From a virus (taxonomy: Duplodnaviria > Heunggongvirae > Uroviricota > Caudoviricetes), in the IMG/VR virus record IMGVR_UViG_2671180458_000004: a DNA stretch of 21,008 nucleotides. One strand, written 5' to 3'. Positions 4,265 through 18,277 of this stretch are shown one piece after another (the stretch's first letter is position 1; every line of letters begins with the position of its first letter). The translations under genes and the position numbers were made by a program. The notes below the pieces were generated by a model. It saw only the letters and a program-made list of their open reading frames with translations. It was not told where the DNA came from and made no database searches.

Positions 4265-5596
4265 TTAATCAATATCTCCTTCCAGTACCTCAAGCATTCC
4301 GCCCCGGATATCCGATTTCAGCTTATCCATATTGATAACCCGGTAAGCATTCACAATCACATCCAGTTTATCCGGCTGACGCTTCAGGCTGTACGGCGCA
4401 TTAACGGCAATCTGCACACTGCCATCCTTACTTTCCACGATATACATCAGATTGTTGTGGCGTTTATCCCACAGTACCGCTTTTGGCGCGGCCAGCATTG
4501 CCGGTAATCGCCCGAAATCCTCCGGCGTCAGGGCGATACCGTCATTCTGATGTTTCATGCTGTCCGCATGGAGCACATTTTTACCGCTCATCGCCAGCAG
4601 GCGGGCCGGTGGCGTTCCCGTCCGGCTTTCCACCGCCTGCGCAATGCTTTCGGTCATAAAGCCCAGCGTGCGGATATCGTTACCGCCTCGCCGGGTTTTC
4701 ATGATGTTTTTTGCCCAGATGCGAAATGCCAGCTGCCGCTCCGGGCTGTTGTTCATCTCCTGAACCACCATTTCCCGTAACGCCGGGCTTTTCACTTCGA
4801 TCAGCTTGCGGATCAGCGCCTGGTCTGTGCCGAACGCCGCCGAACCGGGGTTATATGACCAGCCCACATCCGGTGTCATGGTTCTGGTGCCATCTGAATA
4901 TGTGGTCACCGGCATTTCTCTGACTTCTCCGGTCTGCTTATCCACGCCAGCCTCAACATTGCGGGTGGAGAGATGATCCTGACCGGATGAAACAGACAGC
5001 CCCATCGCATCCAGACGGGCCTGAGACAATGGCCGGACACGGCAGCGACAGTTCCAGCCATTGGGCGGGTAGTGTGTATTCCAGAACGGATCGTCATAGC
5101 GGAATACCAGCCCGTTAAGGGCGGAATGTGCCGGGCGGGTGCGGCTGTCCATCACCGCCACATACTGCCAGAACGGATGCGTGTCCGTGTTGTTCATCAT
5201 CTGCGTGTAACGCCCGGCATTGTAAGCCACACGGGTGTTCACGTTGTAAATCAGCGCCAGACGGCGGGGACTGCCCAGCTGCACTTCTTCCGCGTTACCG
5301 GCACTGTCCACCACAATCTGTTTTCCCCACCATCCCAGCTTTTGCAGGCGGGGTGTCAGCGTGCGAATAAATGCTTTCTGTGAAATCCCCTCATCAACAG
5401 CACGCTGCACTTCCGCCTGTAGTGTGGTCAGTACGTCCAGGCGTGCCACTTTTGCCGCCGTGAATGAACGGGCATGAACATCCGCGTCTGTTTCGAACCA
5501 GTTCCAGCTGATATGCGCCCCTTTGGCGCGGAAGTATGCCACCGCCTCTTTTGAGGCAAGTGTGGCGGCATAACCTAAATCAATCCCCTGTGCCAT
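4265..5596 (-). CDS. F: Head morphogenesis protein, Mu gpF (SPP1 gp7) family
   Basis: 443-aa ORF after the portal gene. It contains the family hallmark PFWQYVAVMDSRTRPAHSALNGLVFRYDDPFWNTHYPPNGWNCRCRVRPL. Confidence 0.9.
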   Translation of the reverse strand: MAQGIDLGYAATLASKEAVAYFRAKGAHISWNWFETDADVHARSFTAAKVARLDVLTTLQAEVQRAVDEGISQKAFIRTLTPRLQKLGWWGKQIVVDSAGNAEEVQLGSPRRLALIYNVNTRVAYNAGRYTQMMNNTDTHPFWQYVAVMDSRTRPAHSALNGLVFRYDDPFWNTHYPPNGWNCRCRVRPLSQARLDAMGLSVSSGQDHLSTRNVEAGVDKQTGEVREMPVTTYSDGTRTMTPDVGWSYNPGSAAFGTDQALIRKLIEVKSPALREMVVQEMNNSPERQLAFRIWAKNIMKTRRGGNDIRTLGFMTESIAQAVESRTGTPPARLLAMSGKNVLHADSMKHQNDGIALTPEDFGRLPAMLAAPKAVLWDKRHNNLMYIVESKDGSVQIAVNAPYSLKRQPDKLDVIVNAYRVINMDKLKSDIRGGMLEVLEGDID

Positions 5597-7178
5597 CCAG
5601 CATCCCCTTCATTTCCGCAGCAAACATGGCATCACTGAGCAGCGTCATCAGGCGGGAATCATCCATTTCACGGTAAAGGGCAGGCAGGTCTGCCAGTGCC
5701 TCCGCCAGCCCCCGCGTTCTGATGGCATCAATGACCGGCTCCAGTACCGGGTCGATGGCCTCCTGTAACCGACGGGCAGGCACCGCATCCCCCATGTCGT
5801 CCAGTTCATCTCGGGGGCTGCTCTTCGCTTCCGGCAGTCTGGCAGCCAGCGCTGTCTGCTCTGTCTTCTCCTGTTTTTCCGGTGGCATCTCTTTGTCTGT
5901 CTGAGCAGGTTCATTGCCACTCTGACGGACACGGAAGATGGCTTCGCCGGGCGTGGGCTGCGGAATACCCGTCTGCTCACGTATCCAGGGATCAGAAATA
6001 TCCATCCCCGTACTGAGCTGCATCACCGCACTGGTGATTTTGGTGATATCCCCCGGCTCTTTTGTCTGGAAACAGATACGCGGCAGGCGACGGATATCTA
6101 TGGCGTGGGCGGTGTTCAGGGCATACAGCGGATACACCAGATCGCGGTTCAGCGTGGCGGCCAGCTGACGTAAATCAGAATCCCTGATTTCCCGGCGCAC
6201 CTCGTTATGCACTTCACCCAGCGAGCGCGCGCCCTTGTCTCCGGCTTCCGTGGTCAGCGTGCCGCCGAGGATAGCTTTGGAGATGGAACGCTCCCCCCAC
6301 GAAATCATGGTTTCAAACGGATCGGCCTGACCGTTCGCTGCCGCCTGAAACTCCAGCGACATCCCGGCCGGGATGATCCCGCCTGTACGTCGCCCGATAT
6401 CCATCACCGCCCGCATCAGGGCGCTTTTCTGCTCCGGTGTTGCCCCGGACGGGTATTTACCGACCTTCATCGGCAGGCCGTACACCTCCAGAAATTCAGC
6501 CAGATCGCGCACGGAATAGTTTTTGAAAATGAACGGCCAGATAAGCGTTCTGACAAGCCCCGTCGCACCACCGTATCCAGTGCGTGAACGCGACTGATGC
6601 ACTATCCAGCCAAAGGGCTGAAACGCCACCCCGGCATGGCTGCCGTCACGCAGCCGCAGTTCGCTCAAATCATCCGGGTTAAGGCAGAAATGCCCGCTGT
6701 CACGCCAGCGGATGGCGCGGATGATGTGCATTTTACCGAGCATCCCGTGCTCAATCTCCATACAGGAATAGCCCTTCAGGATGGCATCGGTGGCATCAAA
6801 CAGCATGGCATCAAACCAGTCGGCGGAATGAAGATATTCGTCGAGCATTTCCGCGTCCTTTTTCTCATTCGCGCTGGCGTTCGGTGGCGGCTCAATACTC
6901 CAGGGCACGCCCTGAATGGCAAGACGTCGCTTGCCCAGCTCTGCAAAAAGGTGGGTATCCTTTTCTTCAATGTCAGCGGCCAGATCGGACTGGGCAATCA
7001 GATCGCCACGTTCAGCCCCGCGAAGGCACTGCGCCGCCCGGTTCGGGGTGATACCCGAGGCCGGATGTTCAATATAACGGCTGGCAATCTGCGGAATATC
7101 CAGCACGGCACTCTGCATCTCCGGATCAAAGGAGAAAGGTTTTCCGTCAAGATCAATTATGCGTCCCACTACCAGCAC
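5580..7178 (-). CDS. H: Portal protein, Mu gpH/gp29 family (DUF935-type)
   Basis: 532-aa ORF between the large terminase and the F-like gene. Size and position match the Mu portal. Its start overlaps the terminase gene end by 10 nt. Confidence 0.85.
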   Translation of the reverse strand: MLVVGRIIDLDGKPFSFDPEMQSAVLDIPQIASRYIEHPASGITPNRAAQCLRGAERGDLIAQSDLAADIEEKDTHLFAELGKRRLAIQGVPWSIEPPPNASANEKKDAEMLDEYLHSADWFDAMLFDATDAILKGYSCMEIEHGMLGKMHIIRAIRWRDSGHFCLNPDDLSELRLRDGSHAGVAFQPFGWIVHQSRSRTGYGGATGLVRTLIWPFIFKNYSVRDLAEFLEVYGLPMKVGKYPSGATPEQKSALMRAVMDIGRRTGGIIPAGMSLEFQAAANGQADPFETMISWGERSISKAILGGTLTTEAGDKGARSLGEVHNEVRREIRDSDLRQLAATLNRDLVYPLYALNTAHAIDIRRLPRICFQTKEPGDITKITSAVMQLSTGMDISDPWIREQTGIPQPTPGEAIFRVRQSGNEPAQTDKEMPPEKQEKTEQTALAARLPEAKSSPRDELDDMGDAVPARRLQEAIDPVLEPVIDAIRTRGLAEALADLPALYREMDDSRLMTLLSDAMFAAEMKGMLDGTGD

Positions 7179-10895: not shown

Positions 10896-11396
10896 TCAGA
10901 CTTTCGGCAAGTCGTAGCGACATAACCATTCATCCGCCGAACGGCGGGCCTCAAGGCCGGGGAGTTTCACCCCCTTTGAATAAATCCAGCGGATATACTG
11001 CTTACAGGACGCGGGCATCTGCCCGGCATTGATCAGGCGCAGAAGCGTGGAGTTGCGGAAGTTCGTTTCACCGGCCCAGAAGATCCACGAAGCCAGCGCC
11101 ACCGTCTGACCACGGGTAAGCGGCACCTGAACACGCCGATCAATGGCCGCAAAGGCCCATTTCATGTCCTTTTCCAGCAGTTCCAGGCATTCTTCATCCG
11201 TCAGGGTCATACCCGGTTTCACATCCGGGCCGGTATGGCCGTAACAGATGGTGGGTGTACCGGTGGGATCGATATACGTGGAGTTTTCTTTCCCTTCCCA
11301 GTAACCGGTGTAATGCGTGGCAATCGTGAACGTCCCGGCACCGGCCAGAACAAGGGCAATCAGCTTTTTACGCAGTGGTGCGGGGAGTTTTGGCAT
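10896..11396 (-). CDS. lys: SAR (signal-anchor-release) endolysin, T4-lysozyme/GH24 type (Mu gp22-like)
   Basis: 166-aa ORF. The catalytic E-8-D-5-T pattern is present in YWEGKENSTYIDPTGTPTICYGH. The N-terminal segment KKLIALVLAGAGTFTIATH is Gly/Ala-rich and weakly hydrophobic, typical of SAR domains. Confidence 0.85.
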   Translation of the reverse strand: MPKLPAPLRKKLIALVLAGAGTFTIATHYTGYWEGKENSTYIDPTGTPTICYGHTGPDVKPGMTLTDEECLELLEKDMKWAFAAIDRRVQVPLTRGQTVALASWIFWAGETNFRNSTLLRLINAGQMPASCKQYIRWIYSKGVKLPGLEARRSADEWLCRYDLPKV

Positions 11397-11467: not shown

Positions 11468-11893
11468 TCAGAAAAGTGGCGGTTGCGTTCTTGCCAGATG
11501 CAGACGGCGCTGTTCGCGTATGACGGTATAAATCTGGGTTTCTGACATCCGGTAATGGCGGCGAAGGGATTCAATTTTCTCGCCCCGGTCCCAGCGCGAA
11601 AATATCTCATTGTTTCGCAGCTCGGCAAAGAGAGATTCCCCGACCGGCAGGTAATAACCCCGTCCGCCCATATAGGCTGCCTGAGCCGCAGCCACCTTGC
11701 GTGCCAGTTTACCGGCCAGTACCGGCTCAATCCCCTGACGCTGAAGTTCTGCGCCAGTGACTTCAACCAGTTCTGACAGGGTCCGCGGCCAGTTCTTTTT
11801 GAGAACATCATCAGGGATGTCATCAAGGCGGTCGATAAGGGCGTGCAGTTGCTCACTGTCACCACCAAACATGCTCATCTGAGTTTCTGCCAT
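11468..11893 (-). CDS. Mor/C-family transcriptional activator (middle/late gene activator)
   Basis: 141-aa ORF. The C-terminal HTH region LRNNEIFSRWDRGEKIESLRRHYRMSETQIYTVIREQR matches the Mu Mor/C family pattern. It lies directly upstream of the lysis and late genes. Confidence 0.85.
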   Translation of the reverse strand: MAETQMSMFGGDSEQLHALIDRLDDIPDDVLKKNWPRTLSELVEVTGAELQRQGIEPVLAGKLARKVAAAQAAYMGGRGYYLPVGESLFAELRNNEIFSRWDRGEKIESLRRHYRMSETQIYTVIREQRRLHLARTQPPLF

Positions 11894-11926: not shown

Positions 11927-11958
11927 TAAAATAAAAATCCCGCGTTGTGGCGGGATTT
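11927..11958 (-). terminator. Rho-independent terminator after gemA (end of the early operon)
   Basis: The minus strand reads AAATCCCGC-CACAAC-GCGGGATTT followed by TTATTTTAAA. That is a 9-bp perfect stem, a 6-nt loop and a U-rich tail, placed 5 nt after the gemA stop. Confidence 0.8.
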
Positions 11959-11962
11959 GGGG

Positions 11963-12472
11963 TTAACGGGGAAGTGATTTTTCATACTGCCTGCAAACGG
12001 CGTCATACCCCATCAGCGTGCGTTCGGGCATTCCCATCGCGGCCAGCATTTTGCGGCGGTGCCATCGCTTGAGACGCTCCAGCACATCTGAGGCCAGGGC
12101 GGGGTGTTGCTCCAGCCACTGCCAGTTTGCCACACCTTCGCCGCCGTTTTGCGCGGCCGTCTGCGATTTCACCCAGCGGTTAAGGGCGGTTTCCGCACCA
12201 TCAGAGATAAAGCCCTGCCGGTGCATCACCTTCCAGATGGCGCGAATTTTAGCGGTCACCGTACCCGGTTTTAAGGCCCGGTTAACCGGGTTCTGACGCA
12301 CTTTAAAACCGCGTTTTTTGAAAACATCCAGCACGCGGGACAACTCATCCGGTGACATATCCCGGCAGCTGGTTTTGCCGGTGGCTGCCAGCAGCACGAA
12401 TGTATAAGTCTCATCATCCAGGGCAAGCTCGCGCTTTGCCACATGAATGGCGGATATCAGTTTTCCTCTCAT
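11963..12472 (-). CDS. gemA: GemA-like regulatory protein (Mu gp16 family, DUF1018-type)
   Basis: 169-aa ORF. The N-terminus LISAIHVAKRELALDDETYTFVLLAATGKTSCRDMSPDELSRVLDVFKKRGF matches the Mu GemA/gp16 family from memory. It is adjacent to the Mor-family gene as in Mu. Confidence 0.8.
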   Translation of the reverse strand: MRGKLISAIHVAKRELALDDETYTFVLLAATGKTSCRDMSPDELSRVLDVFKKRGFKVRQNPVNRALKPGTVTAKIRAIWKVMHRQGFISDGAETALNRWVKSQTAAQNGGEGVANWQWLEQHPALASDVLERLKRWHRRKMLAAMGMPERTLMGYDAVCRQYEKSLPR

Positions 12473-12952: not shown

Positions 12953-13280
12953 TTGCTTTATCCTCCATGCTGGACAGAATCATATGTATTAATGTCGGGC
13001 GTGGAGATATACGCATTTCATTAAGCGTCTGAAGGGCAGCAACAGCTGCCTGTTTATCGGTGCCTTTGGCTATCTCTGCAAGAGAATGCACAATCCATAA
13101 CGGACTTAACGCCACGGCTGAATCCAGAATCATGTCATCCATAATAATTTCTGGCATATCCCGCTTGTCACATTCTTTATCTATAAAAGAAACGATTTTT
13201 TCTGCATCTTCCGGTTTCATGCCTCCGGCGATGAGAATTTTACGATATTCATAAGGCGATCTTAATTCAATACTCATCAT
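12945..13280 (-). CDS. Hypothetical acidic protein
   Basis: 111-aa ORF in the AT-rich block. By my count it has 19 Asp/Glu versus 13 Lys/Arg. No recognisable family. Confidence 0.6.
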   Translation of the reverse strand: MMSIELRSPYEYRKILIAGGMKPEDAEKIVSFIDKECDKRDMPEIIMDDMILDSAVALSPLWIVHSLAEIAKGTDKQAAVAALQTLNEMRISPRPTLIHMILSSMEDKANE

Positions 13281-13292
13281 TCACCTGCCTGT

Positions 13293-13661
13293 TTAATCAG
13301 TTTCCAGTGCTTTGCTACGGGCAACAGCCTCACACTCAAAAAATACCGACTCCGGCACACGCTCCTTTAATTCACGAACAAGAAAATCATTAACGAGCTC
13401 ATGACGTCTTATATTTCTTTCCTTTTCCTCCTGGCGCAATACAGCAAGGCGGTATTCAACAGTCCGGCGTTGTTTCTGAAAGACAGCCAGTGCTTTTCTG
13501 GCAGAGTTACGCCATGTATCATCGCCACAGGGTTCGTATTCAAGCTGAAATTTAATCTCTTCAATGGTTTCTTTTATTTTTGCCAGCAAGCTAAGACAGT
13601 CGCTGATTGTCTTCAGTTTTTCATTATCAATATAACTTCTCACGCATTCACCTCCCGTCAT
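13293..13661 (-). CDS. Hypothetical coiled-coil protein
   Basis: The ORF is open from 13685, but the ATG at 13661 forms an ATGA overlap with the upstream stop (13660-13658), so I prefer it. The protein is helical and charged (KIKETIEEIKFQLEY, LAVLRQEEKERNIRRHEL). Confidence 0.6.
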   Translation of the reverse strand: MTGGECVRSYIDNEKLKTISDCLSLLAKIKETIEEIKFQLEYEPCGDDTWRNSARKALAVFQKQRRTVEYRLAVLRQEEKERNIRRHELVNDFLVRELKERVPESVFFECEAVARSKALETD

Positions 13662-13969
13662 TCCGGTAAAGCTGAAATATGACACCAGTGCGTCACCTGT
13701 CCGTCCTCATCTTCAAGGCAGGCTCCGGTTTCTTCATCAACAAAAAAGCCTTCATACCCCATATGGCCGATGCGCAGTTCCTGCCTGTGACCATACTGAA
13801 CAATCAGCACGACAGCCTCCATATCAGGCGGGAAAGCATCATTCAGTGAATGCCAGGGATAACCGCGCAAATCCCCGAAATAAACACCGGTCAGCGTTCC
13901 GCCACAGACCGGCATTCCGGCGGCACACACAAGAGGTTCATCTGATTCAACAAATAAGGTGGTTATCAT
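13658..13969 (-). CDS. Very acidic hypothetical protein, DUF551-like C-terminus
   Basis: 103-aa ORF with 17 Asp/Glu versus 3 Arg and no Lys. YPWHSLNDAFPPD...VVLIV...VTHWCHISALPE resembles the DUF551 pattern (W..v.D.lP ... VTHWmPLPe) from memory. Confidence 0.6.
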   Translation of the reverse strand: MITTLFVESDEPLVCAAGMPVCGGTLTGVYFGDLRGYPWHSLNDAFPPDMEAVVLIVQYGHRQELRIGHMGYEGFFVDEETGACLEDEDGQVTHWCHISALPE

Positions 13970-14193
13970 GATGCCATTTGCTCCTGTATTTTCTGGCGTA
14001 AGTTTTCAATTTCTGCCGCCATATAAAAACCAATTTTGCTCCAGACATCAGCATCATCACCATGTTCTTCCAGCTCCATTACCGCCATTAAACACGCATC
14101 CTGCCAGTCACTGCTGTTATCAGTTACCGCCACTGAAAATGATGTACTGTCATGTCTGTTAATTATGACGACTGGCTTTTCAATTTTTCTCAT
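13966..14193 (-). CDS. Small acidic hypothetical protein
   Basis: 75-aa ORF with ATGA-type overlaps at both ends. It has 14 Asp/Glu versus 7 Lys/Arg. Confidence 0.6.
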   Translation of the reverse strand: MRKIEKPVVIINRHDSTSFSVAVTDNSSDWQDACLMAVMELEEHGDDADVWSKIGFYMAAEIENLRQKIQEQMAS

Positions 14194-14375
14194 TTATGCC
14201 TCCCGGAAATACGAATGTATATACCGATGAGAAAATCCATAATAAACAGGAAGAGCGACATCCTGATAAAGAACCAAATGTCAGGCATCATGGACAGGTT
14301 TCCTGTAATCGCAAATATAAAACCAATCCCCAACACCGGAACGATAATTGCGAAAAATATAAGTCGTTTAATCAT
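14190..14375 (-). CDS. Small two-TM membrane peptide
   Basis: 61-aa ORF with two hydrophobic stretches (LIFFAIIVPVLGIGFIFAI and IWFFIRMSLFLFIMDFLIGIYI). It is translationally coupled (4-nt overlaps) to both neighbours. Confidence 0.6.
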   Translation of the reverse strand: MIKRLIFFAIIVPVLGIGFIFAITGNLSMMPDIWFFIRMSLFLFIMDFLIGIYIRISGRHK

Positions 14376-14923
14376 GGCATTAACTCCCGTAATACAACAT
14401 CCTCGGCAGTCCGGCGATGGTGATAAATAAAATTCACCGTACTCTCGGATAATTCAAATTTCTCGCCTATTTCCCGGAAGGTAAGACGTCGTGGTGATTC
14501 AGCATCCCGTAATTCACGAATAAGATGAACATCATCGTCAGGTATACGGGTGAAGGGCAGCAATTCTCCGTATTTTTTCATGCTTACGCCAATATATCGC
14601 GCCCGATTGTGGACAGAATCCCGGTCTCGCCCCAGATATTCTCCTATTTGCTTACCGGTCATCGTTCTGGCATTTTTTCGGATAAATTTATCTTCATCAT
14701 GTTTAAATCTTGGACGTTTGCATTTGAGCAACTCCGGGTAAGTACCGCGTAATAAAACAATCCGGTTATGTACACCCCAGAAACTTCTTTTTACCCTGAC
14801 AGCAATATCCTTAACCGGGGTGGATGGATAAAGCGCAATCAGCAGTGCATCTTCTTCAGGTGTCCACGCACGGACATGAGCGGGTGCACGGCCTTTTCGC
14901 CCCATGGGTTGTAAAATCATCAT
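14372..14923 (-). CDS. Putative DNA-binding protein with three Myb/SANT-like HTH repeats
   Basis: 183-aa ORF with three similar units. These are WTPEEDALLIALY...IAVRVKRSFWGVHNRIVLL, FKHDEDKFIRKNARTMTGKQIGEYLGRDRDSVHNRARYIG and IPDDDVHLIRELRDAESPRRLTFREIGEKFELSESTVNFIYHHR. Confidence 0.65.
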   Translation of the reverse strand: MMILQPMGRKGRAPAHVRAWTPEEDALLIALYPSTPVKDIAVRVKRSFWGVHNRIVLLRGTYPELLKCKRPRFKHDEDKFIRKNARTMTGKQIGEYLGRDRDSVHNRARYIGVSMKKYGELLPFTRIPDDDVHLIRELRDAESPRRLTFREIGEKFELSESTVNFIYHHRRTAEDVVLRELMP

Positions 14924-14926
14924 ACA

Positions 14927-15442
14927 TCACCCCCTGACTCGCTTTTCAGCAGCATAAAACTCATCAGACAGAATTTCGGTCATTTTCCGTTTTGCGGAAT
15001 CATCTTCGCACTGAAGGTAAATAACATCGTCAACGCAGAACCACTTCACGGGACCATGCAATATTGCTGAAAAGTCAATGCCCAGCCAGAACAACAGGGC
15101 ATCGGTTCTGGCATACGTGACGGGCGAATATTCACGCCACAGACTGTTAAGTTCGTCAGAGGCAACGCGCAGGGCTTTGGGAATACGTGATGTGCGCGGT
15201 GTGCAGCTCCAGCCATTCGACGCAGTCGGTTTTCGCCATAAGTCGCGATGAAAAGGATATTTGTCATCCATAAAGCGCAGCCCTTTAAAACAAAAGCCAC
15301 TGATACCGGATACAAATACCGACCGGCACGCAACATTCAGCACGGCCTCAAGGCGTTTTGCCTCATCCTTAACTTTCTGGCAGTCCTGCTGATATTTTTT
15401 CCACGCGGCCAGCGCGGAAGGGTTTGATGTTTTAAAGAACAT
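14927..15442 (-). CDS. Hypothetical protein (possible distant paralog of 15979-16521)
   Basis: 171-aa ORF. It shares KYQQ near the N-terminus, a WRK motif about 50 residues later and a D.L.(F/V)WL motif with the 180-aa ORF, in the same order. The similarity was judged by eye only. Confidence 0.6.
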   Translation of the reverse strand: MFFKTSNPSALAAWKKYQQDCQKVKDEAKRLEAVLNVACRSVFVSGISGFCFKGLRFMDDKYPFHRDLWRKPTASNGWSCTPRTSRIPKALRVASDELNSLWREYSPVTYARTDALLFWLGIDFSAILHGPVKWFCVDDVIYLQCEDDSAKRKMTEILSDEFYAAEKRVRG

Positions 15443-15975
15443 TACGCCACCTCCGCAGATATCCCGGCAGGCGCGGCCGTCCGGTCAACAATCAGGTAAC
15501 GCAGAACACGCGCGGTGATATTCCAGCCGCTTAAACCGCAGATGATGACACCCAGGCGTATGTCGATATACGCCATCACAAACTGGGGCACGCCTTCTTT
15601 CATGGCCTGCTCATCAACTTCAGCCACCACATAAACGGTTTCGCAGGTCAGTACGCCCTGAGCAAATTCCCACGCCATCGACGGAATATCATGCCCCTCA
15701 ATCCACGGCAGGGACTTTCTGAAGCTGCACCACTGAACATCATCAGCCGCACATTCCTGGCTGCATTTGCGACGAACCGGCTGCACCGGGCGGGGACGCG
15801 GAATATCATAAAAACCGTTACATTCCGTCAGCACCCCGGCATCAACCGCATCACGCAGAAAATAAACCATCGAGGATGGCGGCATATTCATTTTTTCAGC
15901 CAGAACACCGCAGGTCAGACGTCCGTAAATACGCAGCCAGTTTTTAACCCCTTCAAGCACTTTTGCATCAATCAT
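15442..15975 (-). CDS. Hypothetical protein: N-terminal winged-helix-like domain plus DUF551-like C-terminal region
   Basis: 177-aa ORF. The N-terminus LRIYGRLTCGVLAEKMNMPPSSMVYFLRDAVDAGVLTE looks like a wHTH. The C-terminal QWCSFRKSLPWIEG...VYVVAEV... resembles the DUF551 opening motif. This is a weak by-eye call. Confidence 0.6.
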   Translation of the reverse strand: MIDAKVLEGVKNWLRIYGRLTCGVLAEKMNMPPSSMVYFLRDAVDAGVLTECNGFYDIPRPRPVQPVRRKCSQECAADDVQWCSFRKSLPWIEGHDIPSMAWEFAQGVLTCETVYVVAEVDEQAMKEGVPQFVMAYIDIRLGVIICGLSGWNITARVLRYLIVDRTAAPAGISAEVA

Positions 15976-15978
15976 GAA

Positions 15979-16521
15979 TTATTCCTCCGTCAGCGCCACA
16001 TATTCAGAATGTTTAATTTCCTGGCATTCTTCAGGAATACACCCGTTTATTTCCCTGCCATAAGCGCCTACTTTAAACACCACGCACAGGGCATCACGGG
16101 AGAGTGACGGGGTCCACCAGGAGTCCGTGTTAAACATGGAGGGGATTCTCATTACCCCCAGCTTTTCACAGAGCCAGACAAGGAAATCAGGACGCTTTCT
16201 TAACTCGCGTTCAGCGGCTTCAACCATTGCGGCAATCGCCGGACCTTCAGGGCATGACTCATCAGGTCTGGCAATAAAGCACGGTCCGCCCCCGATAAAA
16301 GCCACATCATCGCGCTTACGCCAGCCCGCAGGCAGAGAACCAGAAAAATAAAACTCACTGATTACGTCCATGGCGAACGGCTTTAAGCGCAATCCGGCAG
16401 CGCCTGTATTTTTCAGTAATGCCCGAAGAATACTGTTGCGTAGCGGTAAAACAGTCTGTTGATATTTGGTGAAATATTTATTTGTCTGTACACGGTCTAA
16501 TTTGAAATAAAAATATGCCAT
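15979..16521 (-). CDS. Hypothetical protein (first gene after gam)
   Basis: 180-aa ORF with AAGGAACAGG upstream of the ATG. A 97-nt AT-rich spacer precedes it. No recognisable family. Confidence 0.6.
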   Translation of the reverse strand: MAYFYFKLDRVQTNKYFTKYQQTVLPLRNSILRALLKNTGAAGLRLKPFAMDVISEFYFSGSLPAGWRKRDDVAFIGGGPCFIARPDESCPEGPAIAAMVEAAERELRKRPDFLVWLCEKLGVMRIPSMFNTDSWWTPSLSRDALCVVFKVGAYGREINGCIPEECQEIKHSEYVALTEE

Positions 16522-16618: not shown

Positions 16619-17149
16619 TTATTTATTCAGTCCGGCGTCCTGTTCAAAAGGCTCGACATGAAAACTTTCAGCACCTTTATTCACCTTAATACCAGCAACC
16701 CCTTTCACCGCATCCGGCTCCGCCAGGACAGCTTGCTTATTCACTTCCTCTTTCGTGCGGATGAAGCGCTCAAGCCCCATACGACGCAGCATTTCAATCA
16801 CACCTTCCACATCACGACTGACGCTGCATGATGGATTTCCCAGCCGCCATGACACCGTTCCGGTGGTCAGATTGGCAGTTTTGGTTTCGCCGCCGTTCGT
16901 CAGCTCATTGCGGTTGGTTTTACACCAGTCATGAATCCCCTTAAAAAGCACTTTGATTTCTTTTTTAAGGTTTTCAATCTGCGGCGTATAACGGGCGGTG
17001 ATTTCTGCCACTTCATCATTCATTGCCGTTTCCAGGCGCAGCGCCTCTCGCTGAATATCGCCCAGGGTGCGGATATCGCGGCTGACCTCTTCACGGGTCT
17101 GCGGTGCCGCCTCTGCTGCGGCCTTTAATTTTGTAACGCGTTTTGCCAT
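16619..17149 (-). CDS. gam: Gam, host-nuclease (RecBCD) inhibitor / DNA-end binding protein, Mu Gam family
   Basis: 176-aa ORF that aligns by eye along its length with Mu Gam. Shared segments include LGD(I/L)QREA.RLET.MND..AEIT, NR.ELTNGG..KTANL.TG.VSWR, RFIRTK.E.NK.A.L.EP.AV.GVAGI.V and PFEQ.AG. Confidence 0.9.
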   Translation of the reverse strand: MAKRVTKLKAAAEAAPQTREEVSRDIRTLGDIQREALRLETAMNDEVAEITARYTPQIENLKKEIKVLFKGIHDWCKTNRNELTNGGETKTANLTTGTVSWRLGNPSCSVSRDVEGVIEMLRRMGLERFIRTKEEVNKQAVLAEPDAVKGVAGIKVNKGAESFHVEPFEQDAGLNK

Positions 17150-18010: not shown

Positions 18011-18277
18011 TCACTCCTCCCAGTAAACCGTGCAGCCGCTGATGCGGGTAGCCTTCACACGGCGGCGCAGGCCGTTGGTCTGTATGGTGATTTCAATTTC
18101 ACCGGTTCCCTTAACTTCGCTTACCGGCGGCGTGGTTTTCAGGGCATAACGTTGTGGGTAGCGTTTGCTGCGTTCCAGTACCGCACCGGCAAGTTCAGTC
18201 AGACGGCGTGCACTGTTCAGGGAGTCGAATAAATTCATTTTTTTACCGCAGGATTGCATATTCATATAACACCTCAT
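18011..18277 (-). CDS. Hypothetical early protein
   Basis: 88-aa ORF. The start is ambiguous: GAGGTG inside the first codons would serve the ATGs at 18265 or 18259 better than the one at 18277. Confidence 0.5.
   Translation of the reverse strand: MRCYMNMQSCGKKMNLFDSLNSARRLTELAGAVLERSKRYPQRYALKTTPPVSEVKGTGEIEITIQTNGLRRRVKATRISGCTVYWEE

Follow-up and report, generated by a model that had tools for sequence, protein, structure and literature searches.

A triple-HTH gene and two small overlapping genes

The IMG/VR virus record IMGVR_UViG_2671180458_000004 (Caudoviricetes) comprises 21,008 nucleotides, referred to in full as the window, and contains a gene for a 183-aa protein built from helix-turn-helix (HTH) units. 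The window reads the reverse strand of a Mu-like prophage of E. coli, and all of its genes are carried on the minus strand. The 183-aa open reading frame (ORF; 14372-14923, minus strand), defined by its reading frame, a match to the PHROG 323 family, homologs and an AlphaFold2 model, begins with MMILQPMG and is preceded by an AGGGGG Shine-Dalgarno sequence inside the 3' end of the upstream gene. Its stop codon overlaps the start codon of a 61-aa hydrophobic peptide (14190-14375, minus strand) in an ATGA at 14372-14375. The stop codon of the peptide overlaps in the same way the start of an acidic 75-aa ORF (13966-14193, minus strand) in an ATGA at 14190-14193, and GGGAG(G) ribosome-binding sites precede both the 61-aa and the 75-aa starts. 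An earlier description of this stretch, hereafter the sequence-only reading, had reported the 183-aa ORF and its W-T-P-E-E-D signature, the ATGA overlaps, the doubly hydrophobic peptide and the acidic ORF; each of these features was found as described. The ratio of nonsynonymous to synonymous substitution rates (dN/dS) is 0.23-0.28 for the HTH gene and 0.13-0.43 among intact copies of the peptide; this purifying selection indicates that both are real genes.

Units and family of the 183-aa protein

AlphaFold2, supplied with an alignment of 19 family sequences, models the 183-aa protein as three three-helix bundles at H22-59, H75-110 and H129-169, followed by a C-terminal helix (mean predicted local distance difference test score, pLDDT, 81.9; ~85-92 across the bundle blocks). 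Unit 1 (residues ~18-60; 14744-14872, minus strand) comprises helices 22-31, 37-43 and 48-59 and is Myb/GcrA-like. It carries the W-T-P-E-E-D signature as W20-T21-P22-E23-E24-D25, of which W20, T21 and D25 are invariant across the 19 family members. Unit 2 (residues ~72-113; 14585-14710, minus strand; helices 75-84, 90-97 and 101-110) is a duplicate of unit 1, and unit 3 (residues ~126-172; 14408-14548, minus strand; helices 129-140, 149-156 and 160-169) is a diverged HTH resembling those of sigma-70 region 4 and AsnC-type proteins. Profile-profile alignment with hhalign matched unit 1 to unit 2 with a probability of 98.5% (E 2.8e-15) and unit 2 to unit 3 with a probability of 76.6% (E 2e-5), and returned only a weak 14-column match between units 1 and 3. 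These scores are well past chance, and show that units 1 and 2 are clearly duplicated and that unit 3 is a diverged HTH. The three HTH units of the sequence-only reading are confirmed. Unit 3 is also the best-conserved segment of the family, with invariant columns that include D129, D131, V132, L134, R136, L138, R139, F149, I152, E154, K155 and F156. The protein is basic overall, with 36 Lys and Arg against 25 Asp and Glu residues.

Family searches place the protein in PHROG 323 (E 1.9e-58, 199.5 bits), with residues 2-182 aligned to positions 80-256 of the 319-position profile; its relatives P0085 and P0149 and the phage Mu protein Mu_9 match the same family. Within Pfam, the 183-aa protein matches HTH families only, and all of these matches are sub-threshold. 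The Myb families (PF00249/PF13921) reach 15.7 bits against a cut-off of 24.4 and cover residues 19-31 only, while across the 19 family members a Pfam Myb match at E<=1e-3 was found in nine (best 6.3e-9) and Sigma70_r4 at the same threshold in 12. Residues 131-167, in unit 3, give sub-threshold matches to HTH_AsnC-type, HTH_11 and Sigma70_r4.

The Myb/SANT assignment was examined further at the level of fold and of individual residues. The protein has the three-helix HTH fold in tandem repeats expected of Myb/SANT proteins, and the family profile aligns with c-Myb R2R3 over both repeats in tandem register (E 3.9e-6), with unit 2 falling on c-Myb R3 in this match and also on residues 1-48 of Mu_9, formerly E8. 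Myb repeats have a core of three regularly spaced tryptophans. This triad is absent from the 183-aa family; W20 alone is invariant, I40 and L58 occupy the later positions of unit 1, and the first Trp position of unit 2 is F73 in the 183-aa protein and Trp in some relatives. Against the PDB, the family profile also matched the archaeal HTH-repeat protein Cbp1 (2lvs; E 4e-4). The best structural match of the 183-aa protein is the DNA-binding domain of GcrA; sigma region 4 and small terminase stand at ~5.8-6.0. The protein itself has no Pfam GcrA (PF07750) match, although some repeats of the wider HTH-repeat superfamily do match this family.

The remaining candidate memberships did not hold. HTH_AsnC-type reaches 22.4 bits against a cut-off of 27 (residues 131-163), and no match to the RAM domain was found. 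Homologs carry the RefSeq names 'AsnC family protein', 'DNA-binding protein' and 'SANT/Myb domain-containing protein'; the first of these is a misnomer, because the protein has no ligand-binding domain, and the misleading name is corrected here: the 183-aa protein is not an AsnC/Lrp regulator. Similarly, the region-4-like unit 3 scores 19.3 bits against a sigma-70 cut-off of 24.1 with no region 2, and the NCBIfam sigma70-ECF model (cut-off 42.9) gives 14 bits. A Myb/GcrA-like HTH pair and a sigma-region-4-like third unit make up the 183-aa protein, a bacterial flavor of the fold. Thus the Myb/SANT label given by the sequence-only reading applies to units 1 and 2, but not to unit 3 and not at the Pfam Myb cut-off; among the Myb/SANT, sigma-region-4 and terminase folds that it had named as alternatives, the first two are each represented in part.

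Several of these searches also returned endonuclease annotations, which raise the possibility that the 183-aa protein, itself free of a nuclease, descends from or corresponds to the multi-HTH module of phage homing endonucleases and binds one specific site, for instance for protection or marking, without controlling transcription. PADLOC found no defense-system match for the protein but did return a weak homing-endonuclease match over residues 18-165 (E 0.0085). Likewise, HNH-endonuclease PHROGs are matched weakly (phrog_1891 at E 0.0043, and several more for the relatives), some BFVD matches are annotated 'Endonuclease', and tblastn matches fall inside mycobacteriophage genes annotated as HNH endonuclease or as split methyltransferase. 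The endonuclease-family matches are weak, however, and involve the HTH part only. Moreover, purifying selection has kept the nuclease-free architecture of 182-187 aa across identities of 98% to 34%; the protein is not a recent remnant, and the gene lies in line within early operons rather than within another gene. We therefore regard this interpretation as unlikely.

The sequence-only reading had considered a protein of this kind unusual in an enterobacterial phage early operon. That view is not borne out: the protein belongs to PHROG 323, has a homolog in phage Mu itself, and its gene was found at 273 places in 232 of the 5426 complete E. coli genomes. Full-length homologs of 182-187 aa were found in E. 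coli, Salmonella and Citrobacter, and an exhaustive profile search retrieved 13,961 proteins at E<=1e-3. Many of these matches are proteins of 300-1100 aa with three to 10 copies of the HTH unit, one of them with a helicase preceding the repeats, and BFVD contains many uncharacterized phage multi-HTH proteins of similar size and architecture. Scanning GTDB species-representative genomes with the family alignment gave no match; as the prophage is strain-specific, a scan of IMG/VR was used in its place. Outside the enterobacterial phages, a Myb-like HTH pair was observed at the end of gp109 in Mycobacterium phage Bombitas (1004-2887), where relatives annotate an HNH endonuclease, suggesting an insertion of the homing-endonuclease type. 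A fusion of HTH and methyltransferase in mycobacteriophages was considered and rejected, as Bombitas gp109 and gp110 look like one methyltransferase split by an insert.

Genomic neighborhoods and the small downstream genes

The segment at 13000-16500 is 97.7% identical to an 'inserted Mu-like phage' within an Stx2c phage record, and a prophage of E. coli OkiPb01678 shares 99.3% identity with 13900-15000. Read along the minus strand, the gene order begins with transposase A, B, a Kil-like gene (18011-18277, minus strand; BLASTP to Mu Kil at E 2.6e-5, with PF26843 at the same position in relatives), Gam (16619-17149) and a 180-aa gene. It continues with homologs of Mu_11 (15442-15975) and Mu_12 (Phage_Mu_Gp12; 14927-15442, minus strand; 53% identity by BLASTP, E 1.8e-63; phrog_2314, and PF26885 in relatives), the HTH gene and the 61-aa peptide, and ends with the 75-aa ORF, three further small genes, GemA and Mor/C homologs and lysis genes. 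This order places the stretch of HTH gene, peptide and 75-aa ORF in the long early ('semi-essential') operon. Between 13300 and 17300, the coding strand shows neither a promoter-like site nor a convincing intrinsic terminator. Farther along the operon, a strong terminator-like hairpin of nine pairs with a T-run (11935-11958, minus strand) lies between the GemA homolog (11963-12472) and the homolog of a Mor/C-type activator (11468-11893).

The question of whether the HTH protein and the 61-aa peptide constitute a functional two-gene module, either a regulator with a membrane effector or a membrane toxin with its controller, was raised by the sequence-only reading. Such a module would be consistent with the overlap of stop and start codons, with the ribosome-binding site of the peptide inside the upstream gene, and with the position of all the peptide copies seen, which lie directly 3' of an HTH gene or its remnant. 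Yet ATGA overlaps occur at three successive junctions, between the 183-aa and 61-aa, the 61-aa and 75-aa, and the 75-aa and 103-aa genes. The last of these joins the 75-aa ORF to the gene for a very acidic 103-aa protein (13658-13969, minus strand; net charge -14; phrog_6925), so translational coupling is not peculiar to the trio of HTH gene, peptide and 75-aa ORF. The overlaps reflect the general tight packing of the early operon and are not the sign of a functional pair.

The distribution of the two genes also speaks against a module. Of the 273 places where E. coli genomes have the HTH gene, 120 (~44%) also have the peptide, and other genes follow the HTH gene elsewhere. Among 42 Mu-like loci from IMG/VR, a Mu_12 homolog lies upstream wherever that flank was captured, and the gene downstream is the peptide in 12 and an unrelated acidic protein of 103-110 aa in 27. 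The HTH allele 98% identical to that of the window and the one 70% identical were each seen with either downstream neighbor, so that peptide and 103-aa protein alternate whatever the allele. In E. coli and Salmonella, most Mu-like prophages have the 103-aa protein directly 3' of the HTH gene, where the peptide would be, and its homolog occupies this position in the Salmonella Mu-like prophages. The HTH gene of P2-like prophages (Salmonella, Citrobacter) and of phage Shae_phiSM instead adjoins the replication gene A, an Ash-family gene or a Dam methyltransferase, and that of lambdoid prophages comes after the O and P/DnaC-like replication genes. The loci examined in Salmonella and Citrobacter, and in P2-like and lambdoid prophages, lack the peptide, and conserved co-occurrence of HTH gene and peptide across relatives was not found. 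Comparing the Mu-like with the other contexts, the HTH gene is the sole gene in common within 4 kb, besides one unrelated nucleotide pyrophosphohydrolase. Further evidence against a module comes from PADLOC, which has no match for the peptide and the homing-endonuclease match described above for the HTH protein, from the lack of an Rfam antisense RNA, and from the separate Kil homolog at 18011-18277. A functional two-gene module is thus very unlikely, and neither annotation nor experiment should treat the HTH gene and peptide as a pair. The HTH gene is a single-gene cassette that moves among Mu-like, P2-like and lambdoid phages, and the order of HTH gene, peptide, 75-aa ORF and 103-aa gene in the window is a rare mosaic.

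Three observations on neighboring genes were made alongside this comparison. The 103-aa protein of the window contains four cysteines and may act as a mimic of DNA or bind metal. A dATP/dGTP pyrophosphohydrolase (PF04447) is encoded in the early region of a Salmonella Mu-like prophage (locus L007, 6040-6987), with 78% identity over 95 residues to a gene of a non-Mu-like prophage locus (L076, 2976-3446), which adds to the evidence that accessory genes are exchanged among phage backbones. In Citrobacter phage Shae_phiSM (OR565851), an unannotated 205-aa ORF at 5208-5825 has an Ash-family Pfam match and contains, in a different reading frame, the hypothetical gene of 76 aa that is annotated there (5519-5749). 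As the pair is seen again in many P2-like loci, one of the two annotations is probably wrong.

The P2-like and lambdoid neighborhoods bear on a different interpretation, in which the 183-aa protein would read the methylation state of DNA as GcrA does, tying early phage functions to Dam or other methylation. A Dam-type methyltransferase often lies directly beside the gene in these loci, on either side, and in some loci a C5 methyltransferase or PAPS-reductase gene is next downstream; in addition, the GcrA domain is the best structural match and Pfam GcrA is matched within the superfamily. The Mu-like loci, however, have no methyltransferase within 4 kb, the 183-aa protein itself lacks a Pfam GcrA match, and in mycobacteriophages the supposed 'methyltransferase fusion' is apparently a methyltransferase gene split by an insertion. 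Adjacency of this kind is expected by chance, because the accessory region spans a few kb and methyltransferases are frequent there. The proximity of Dam genes in P2-like loci was consequently not adopted as a functional link, and is kept only within an interpretation that we consider distinctly improbable.

The 61-aa peptide was characterized by hydropathy, AlphaFold2, its homologs and dN/dS. Its hydrophobic segments at residues ~5-25 and 33-54 (Kyte-Doolittle peaks 2.8 and 2.25) are modeled as a helical hairpin, H2-27/H31-57 (pLDDT 73.5), which confirms the two hydrophobic helices recognized previously, and the basic residues at both of its ends suggest an N-in/C-in topology. Homologs form 16 clusters, restricted to E. 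coli or Shigella, where the peptide is an optional gene of Mu-like prophages; 109 of the 5426 complete E. coli genomes have it, at 120 places. Pfam, NCBIfam and PADLOC contain no family match for it, and its single PHROG match is phrog_19804 (function not assigned; E 4e-4). In one degenerate Mu-like prophage (L014, 2086-2558), the peptide copy has a dN/dS of ~1, against the lower values of intact copies, suggesting decay; a truncated 96-aa ORF upstream of it is an apparent remnant of the HTH gene.

The peptide was compared with known classes of small membrane proteins. Hok-type toxins have a single transmembrane helix and ~50 aa, and are accompanied by an antisense RNA and a translational-coupling leader. 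The peptide has two helices and no family match; an Rfam scan of 13000-15600 for antisense and other RNAs returned one chance-level match only, and no promoter-like sites were found near the peptide on either strand. With two helices and no antisense RNA, the peptide is not Hok-like. Nor is it Kil (PF26843), since the Kil homolog is the separate ORF at 18011-18277; the suggestion of a Kil- or Hok-type toxin can thus be set aside. Class II holins, or pinholins, have two transmembrane helices and a charged C-terminus and are encoded in the lysis cassette. The two-helix shape and basic C-terminus of the peptide resemble a pinholin, but its gene belongs to the early operon, with the lysozyme gene (10896-11396) ~2.8 kb farther downstream, and no holin family match was found. 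The 75-aa ORF is an acidic ORFan (14 Asp and Glu against seven Lys and Arg residues; net charge -7) with one homolog cluster, in a stretch covered by only three complete E. coli genomes; it has no match in Pfam, PHROGs, NCBIfam or PADLOC, and PADLOC likewise has no match for the genes neighboring the HTH gene.

Proposed role and relation to known systems

Taken together, we think it probable that the 183-aa protein is a stand-alone early accessory regulator that binds double-stranded DNA, that its gene is a cassette, and that the peptide and the 75-aa ORF are independent of it. In the proposed mechanism, the protein would be translated from the long early (semi-essential) transcript of the Mu-like prophage as a DNA-binding protein with a Myb/GcrA-like tandem pair and a sigma-region-4-like HTH, devoid of enzymatic or ligand-binding domains. 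As c-Myb R2R3 or Cbp1 of Sulfolobus does, the protein may read successive major grooves with its three recognition helices, and would thereby occupy specific sites in host or phage DNA during lytic development. The gene is a self-contained cassette traded among Mu-like, P2-like and lambdoid enterobacterial phages, always within the accessory portion of the early operon, close to replication genes. The peptide, presumably an independent small inner-membrane hairpin, and the 75-aa ORF, a putative further independent insertion, would have entered a subset of E. coli prophages at the boundary 3' of the HTH gene. An early membrane-acting accessory function, for example superinfection exclusion as provided by T4 Imm, would be the most plausible role of the peptide.

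Several points weigh against this interpretation. The predicted template modeling score of 0.45 leaves the mutual arrangement of the three units undefined, and a Foldseek search of the whole 183-aa model against the PDB gave no significant match. Residues 1-17 are predicted to be disordered (pLDDT 41-59), yet contain the family-invariant residues G11, P14 and H16; this N-terminal tail may serve as a short linear motif that a protein partner recognizes. The PHROG 323 label, 'transcriptional regulator, D5-like', is an annotation rather than a test, no function has been reported for the 183-aa family or for Mu_9/E8 in the literature searched (on Myb- and GcrA-like phage proteins and on the semi-essential early genes and gene names of Mu), and the term 'regulator' is drawn from the domain type alone. 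Finally, the consistent position of the peptide after the HTH gene or its remnant makes a facultative interaction conceivable. In a more elaborate model, the family would comprise GcrA-like methylation readers or site-specific DNA 'markers', acquired separately by temperate enterobacterial phages of three unrelated backbones to time early or replication functions, with an N-terminal tail that recruits a host protein and, in the Mu-like prophages of E. coli, with facultative cooperation of the peptide. We consider this combination a long shot.

The multi-HTH family recurs beside the replication genes of Mu-like, P2-like and lambdoid phages; because it is both common and conserved with no known function, determining the binding sites of one member would annotate hundreds of prophage genes. 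The practical value is otherwise modest.

The 183-aa protein is a further member of a known phage HTH family whose function is uncharacterized, and nothing observed suggests a new kind of system; its resemblances to better-known proteins are partial. T4 Imm-type proteins are small, early-expressed inner-membrane proteins of phages, and the peptide shares with T4 Imm and other such proteins its small size, its two hydrophobic helices and its position among early-expressed genes; it has no sequence or family match to T4 Imm, and the resemblance is of type only. Compared with the DNA-binding domains of c-Myb (R2R3; PDB 1h88, 1mse) and of the plant R2R3 MYB protein WER (6kks), the 183-aa family keeps only the first of the three tryptophans and adds a third, non-Myb HTH, and the 183-aa protein derives from a prokaryotic virus and lacks an activation domain. 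GcrA comprises one such DNA-binding domain together with a C-terminal sigma-70-binding domain, a combination that the 183-aa protein does not show; the DNA-binding domain of the Caulobacter protein (PDB 5yiu) is 17% identical to the 183-aa protein. Cbp1 of Sulfolobus (PDB 2lvs) is an archaeal host protein that binds CRISPR repeats and is found in another genomic context. Another comparison is with Mu_9, a 95-aa hypothetical protein encoded in the semi-essential early region of phage Mu (AF083977, 5494-5781), just upstream of gam. Mu_9 is 31% identical to the 183-aa protein over 101 residues by BLASTP (E 5e-10), matches phrog_323 (E 1.3e-28) and is encoded in the comparable early operon of a Mu-type phage. 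It has two units only, equivalent to units 2 and 3, and lies upstream of gam, whereas the 183-aa gene lies downstream of the Mu_12 homolog. These similarities tie a long-unexplained early gene of phage Mu, E8, to a widespread family of multi-HTH phage proteins.

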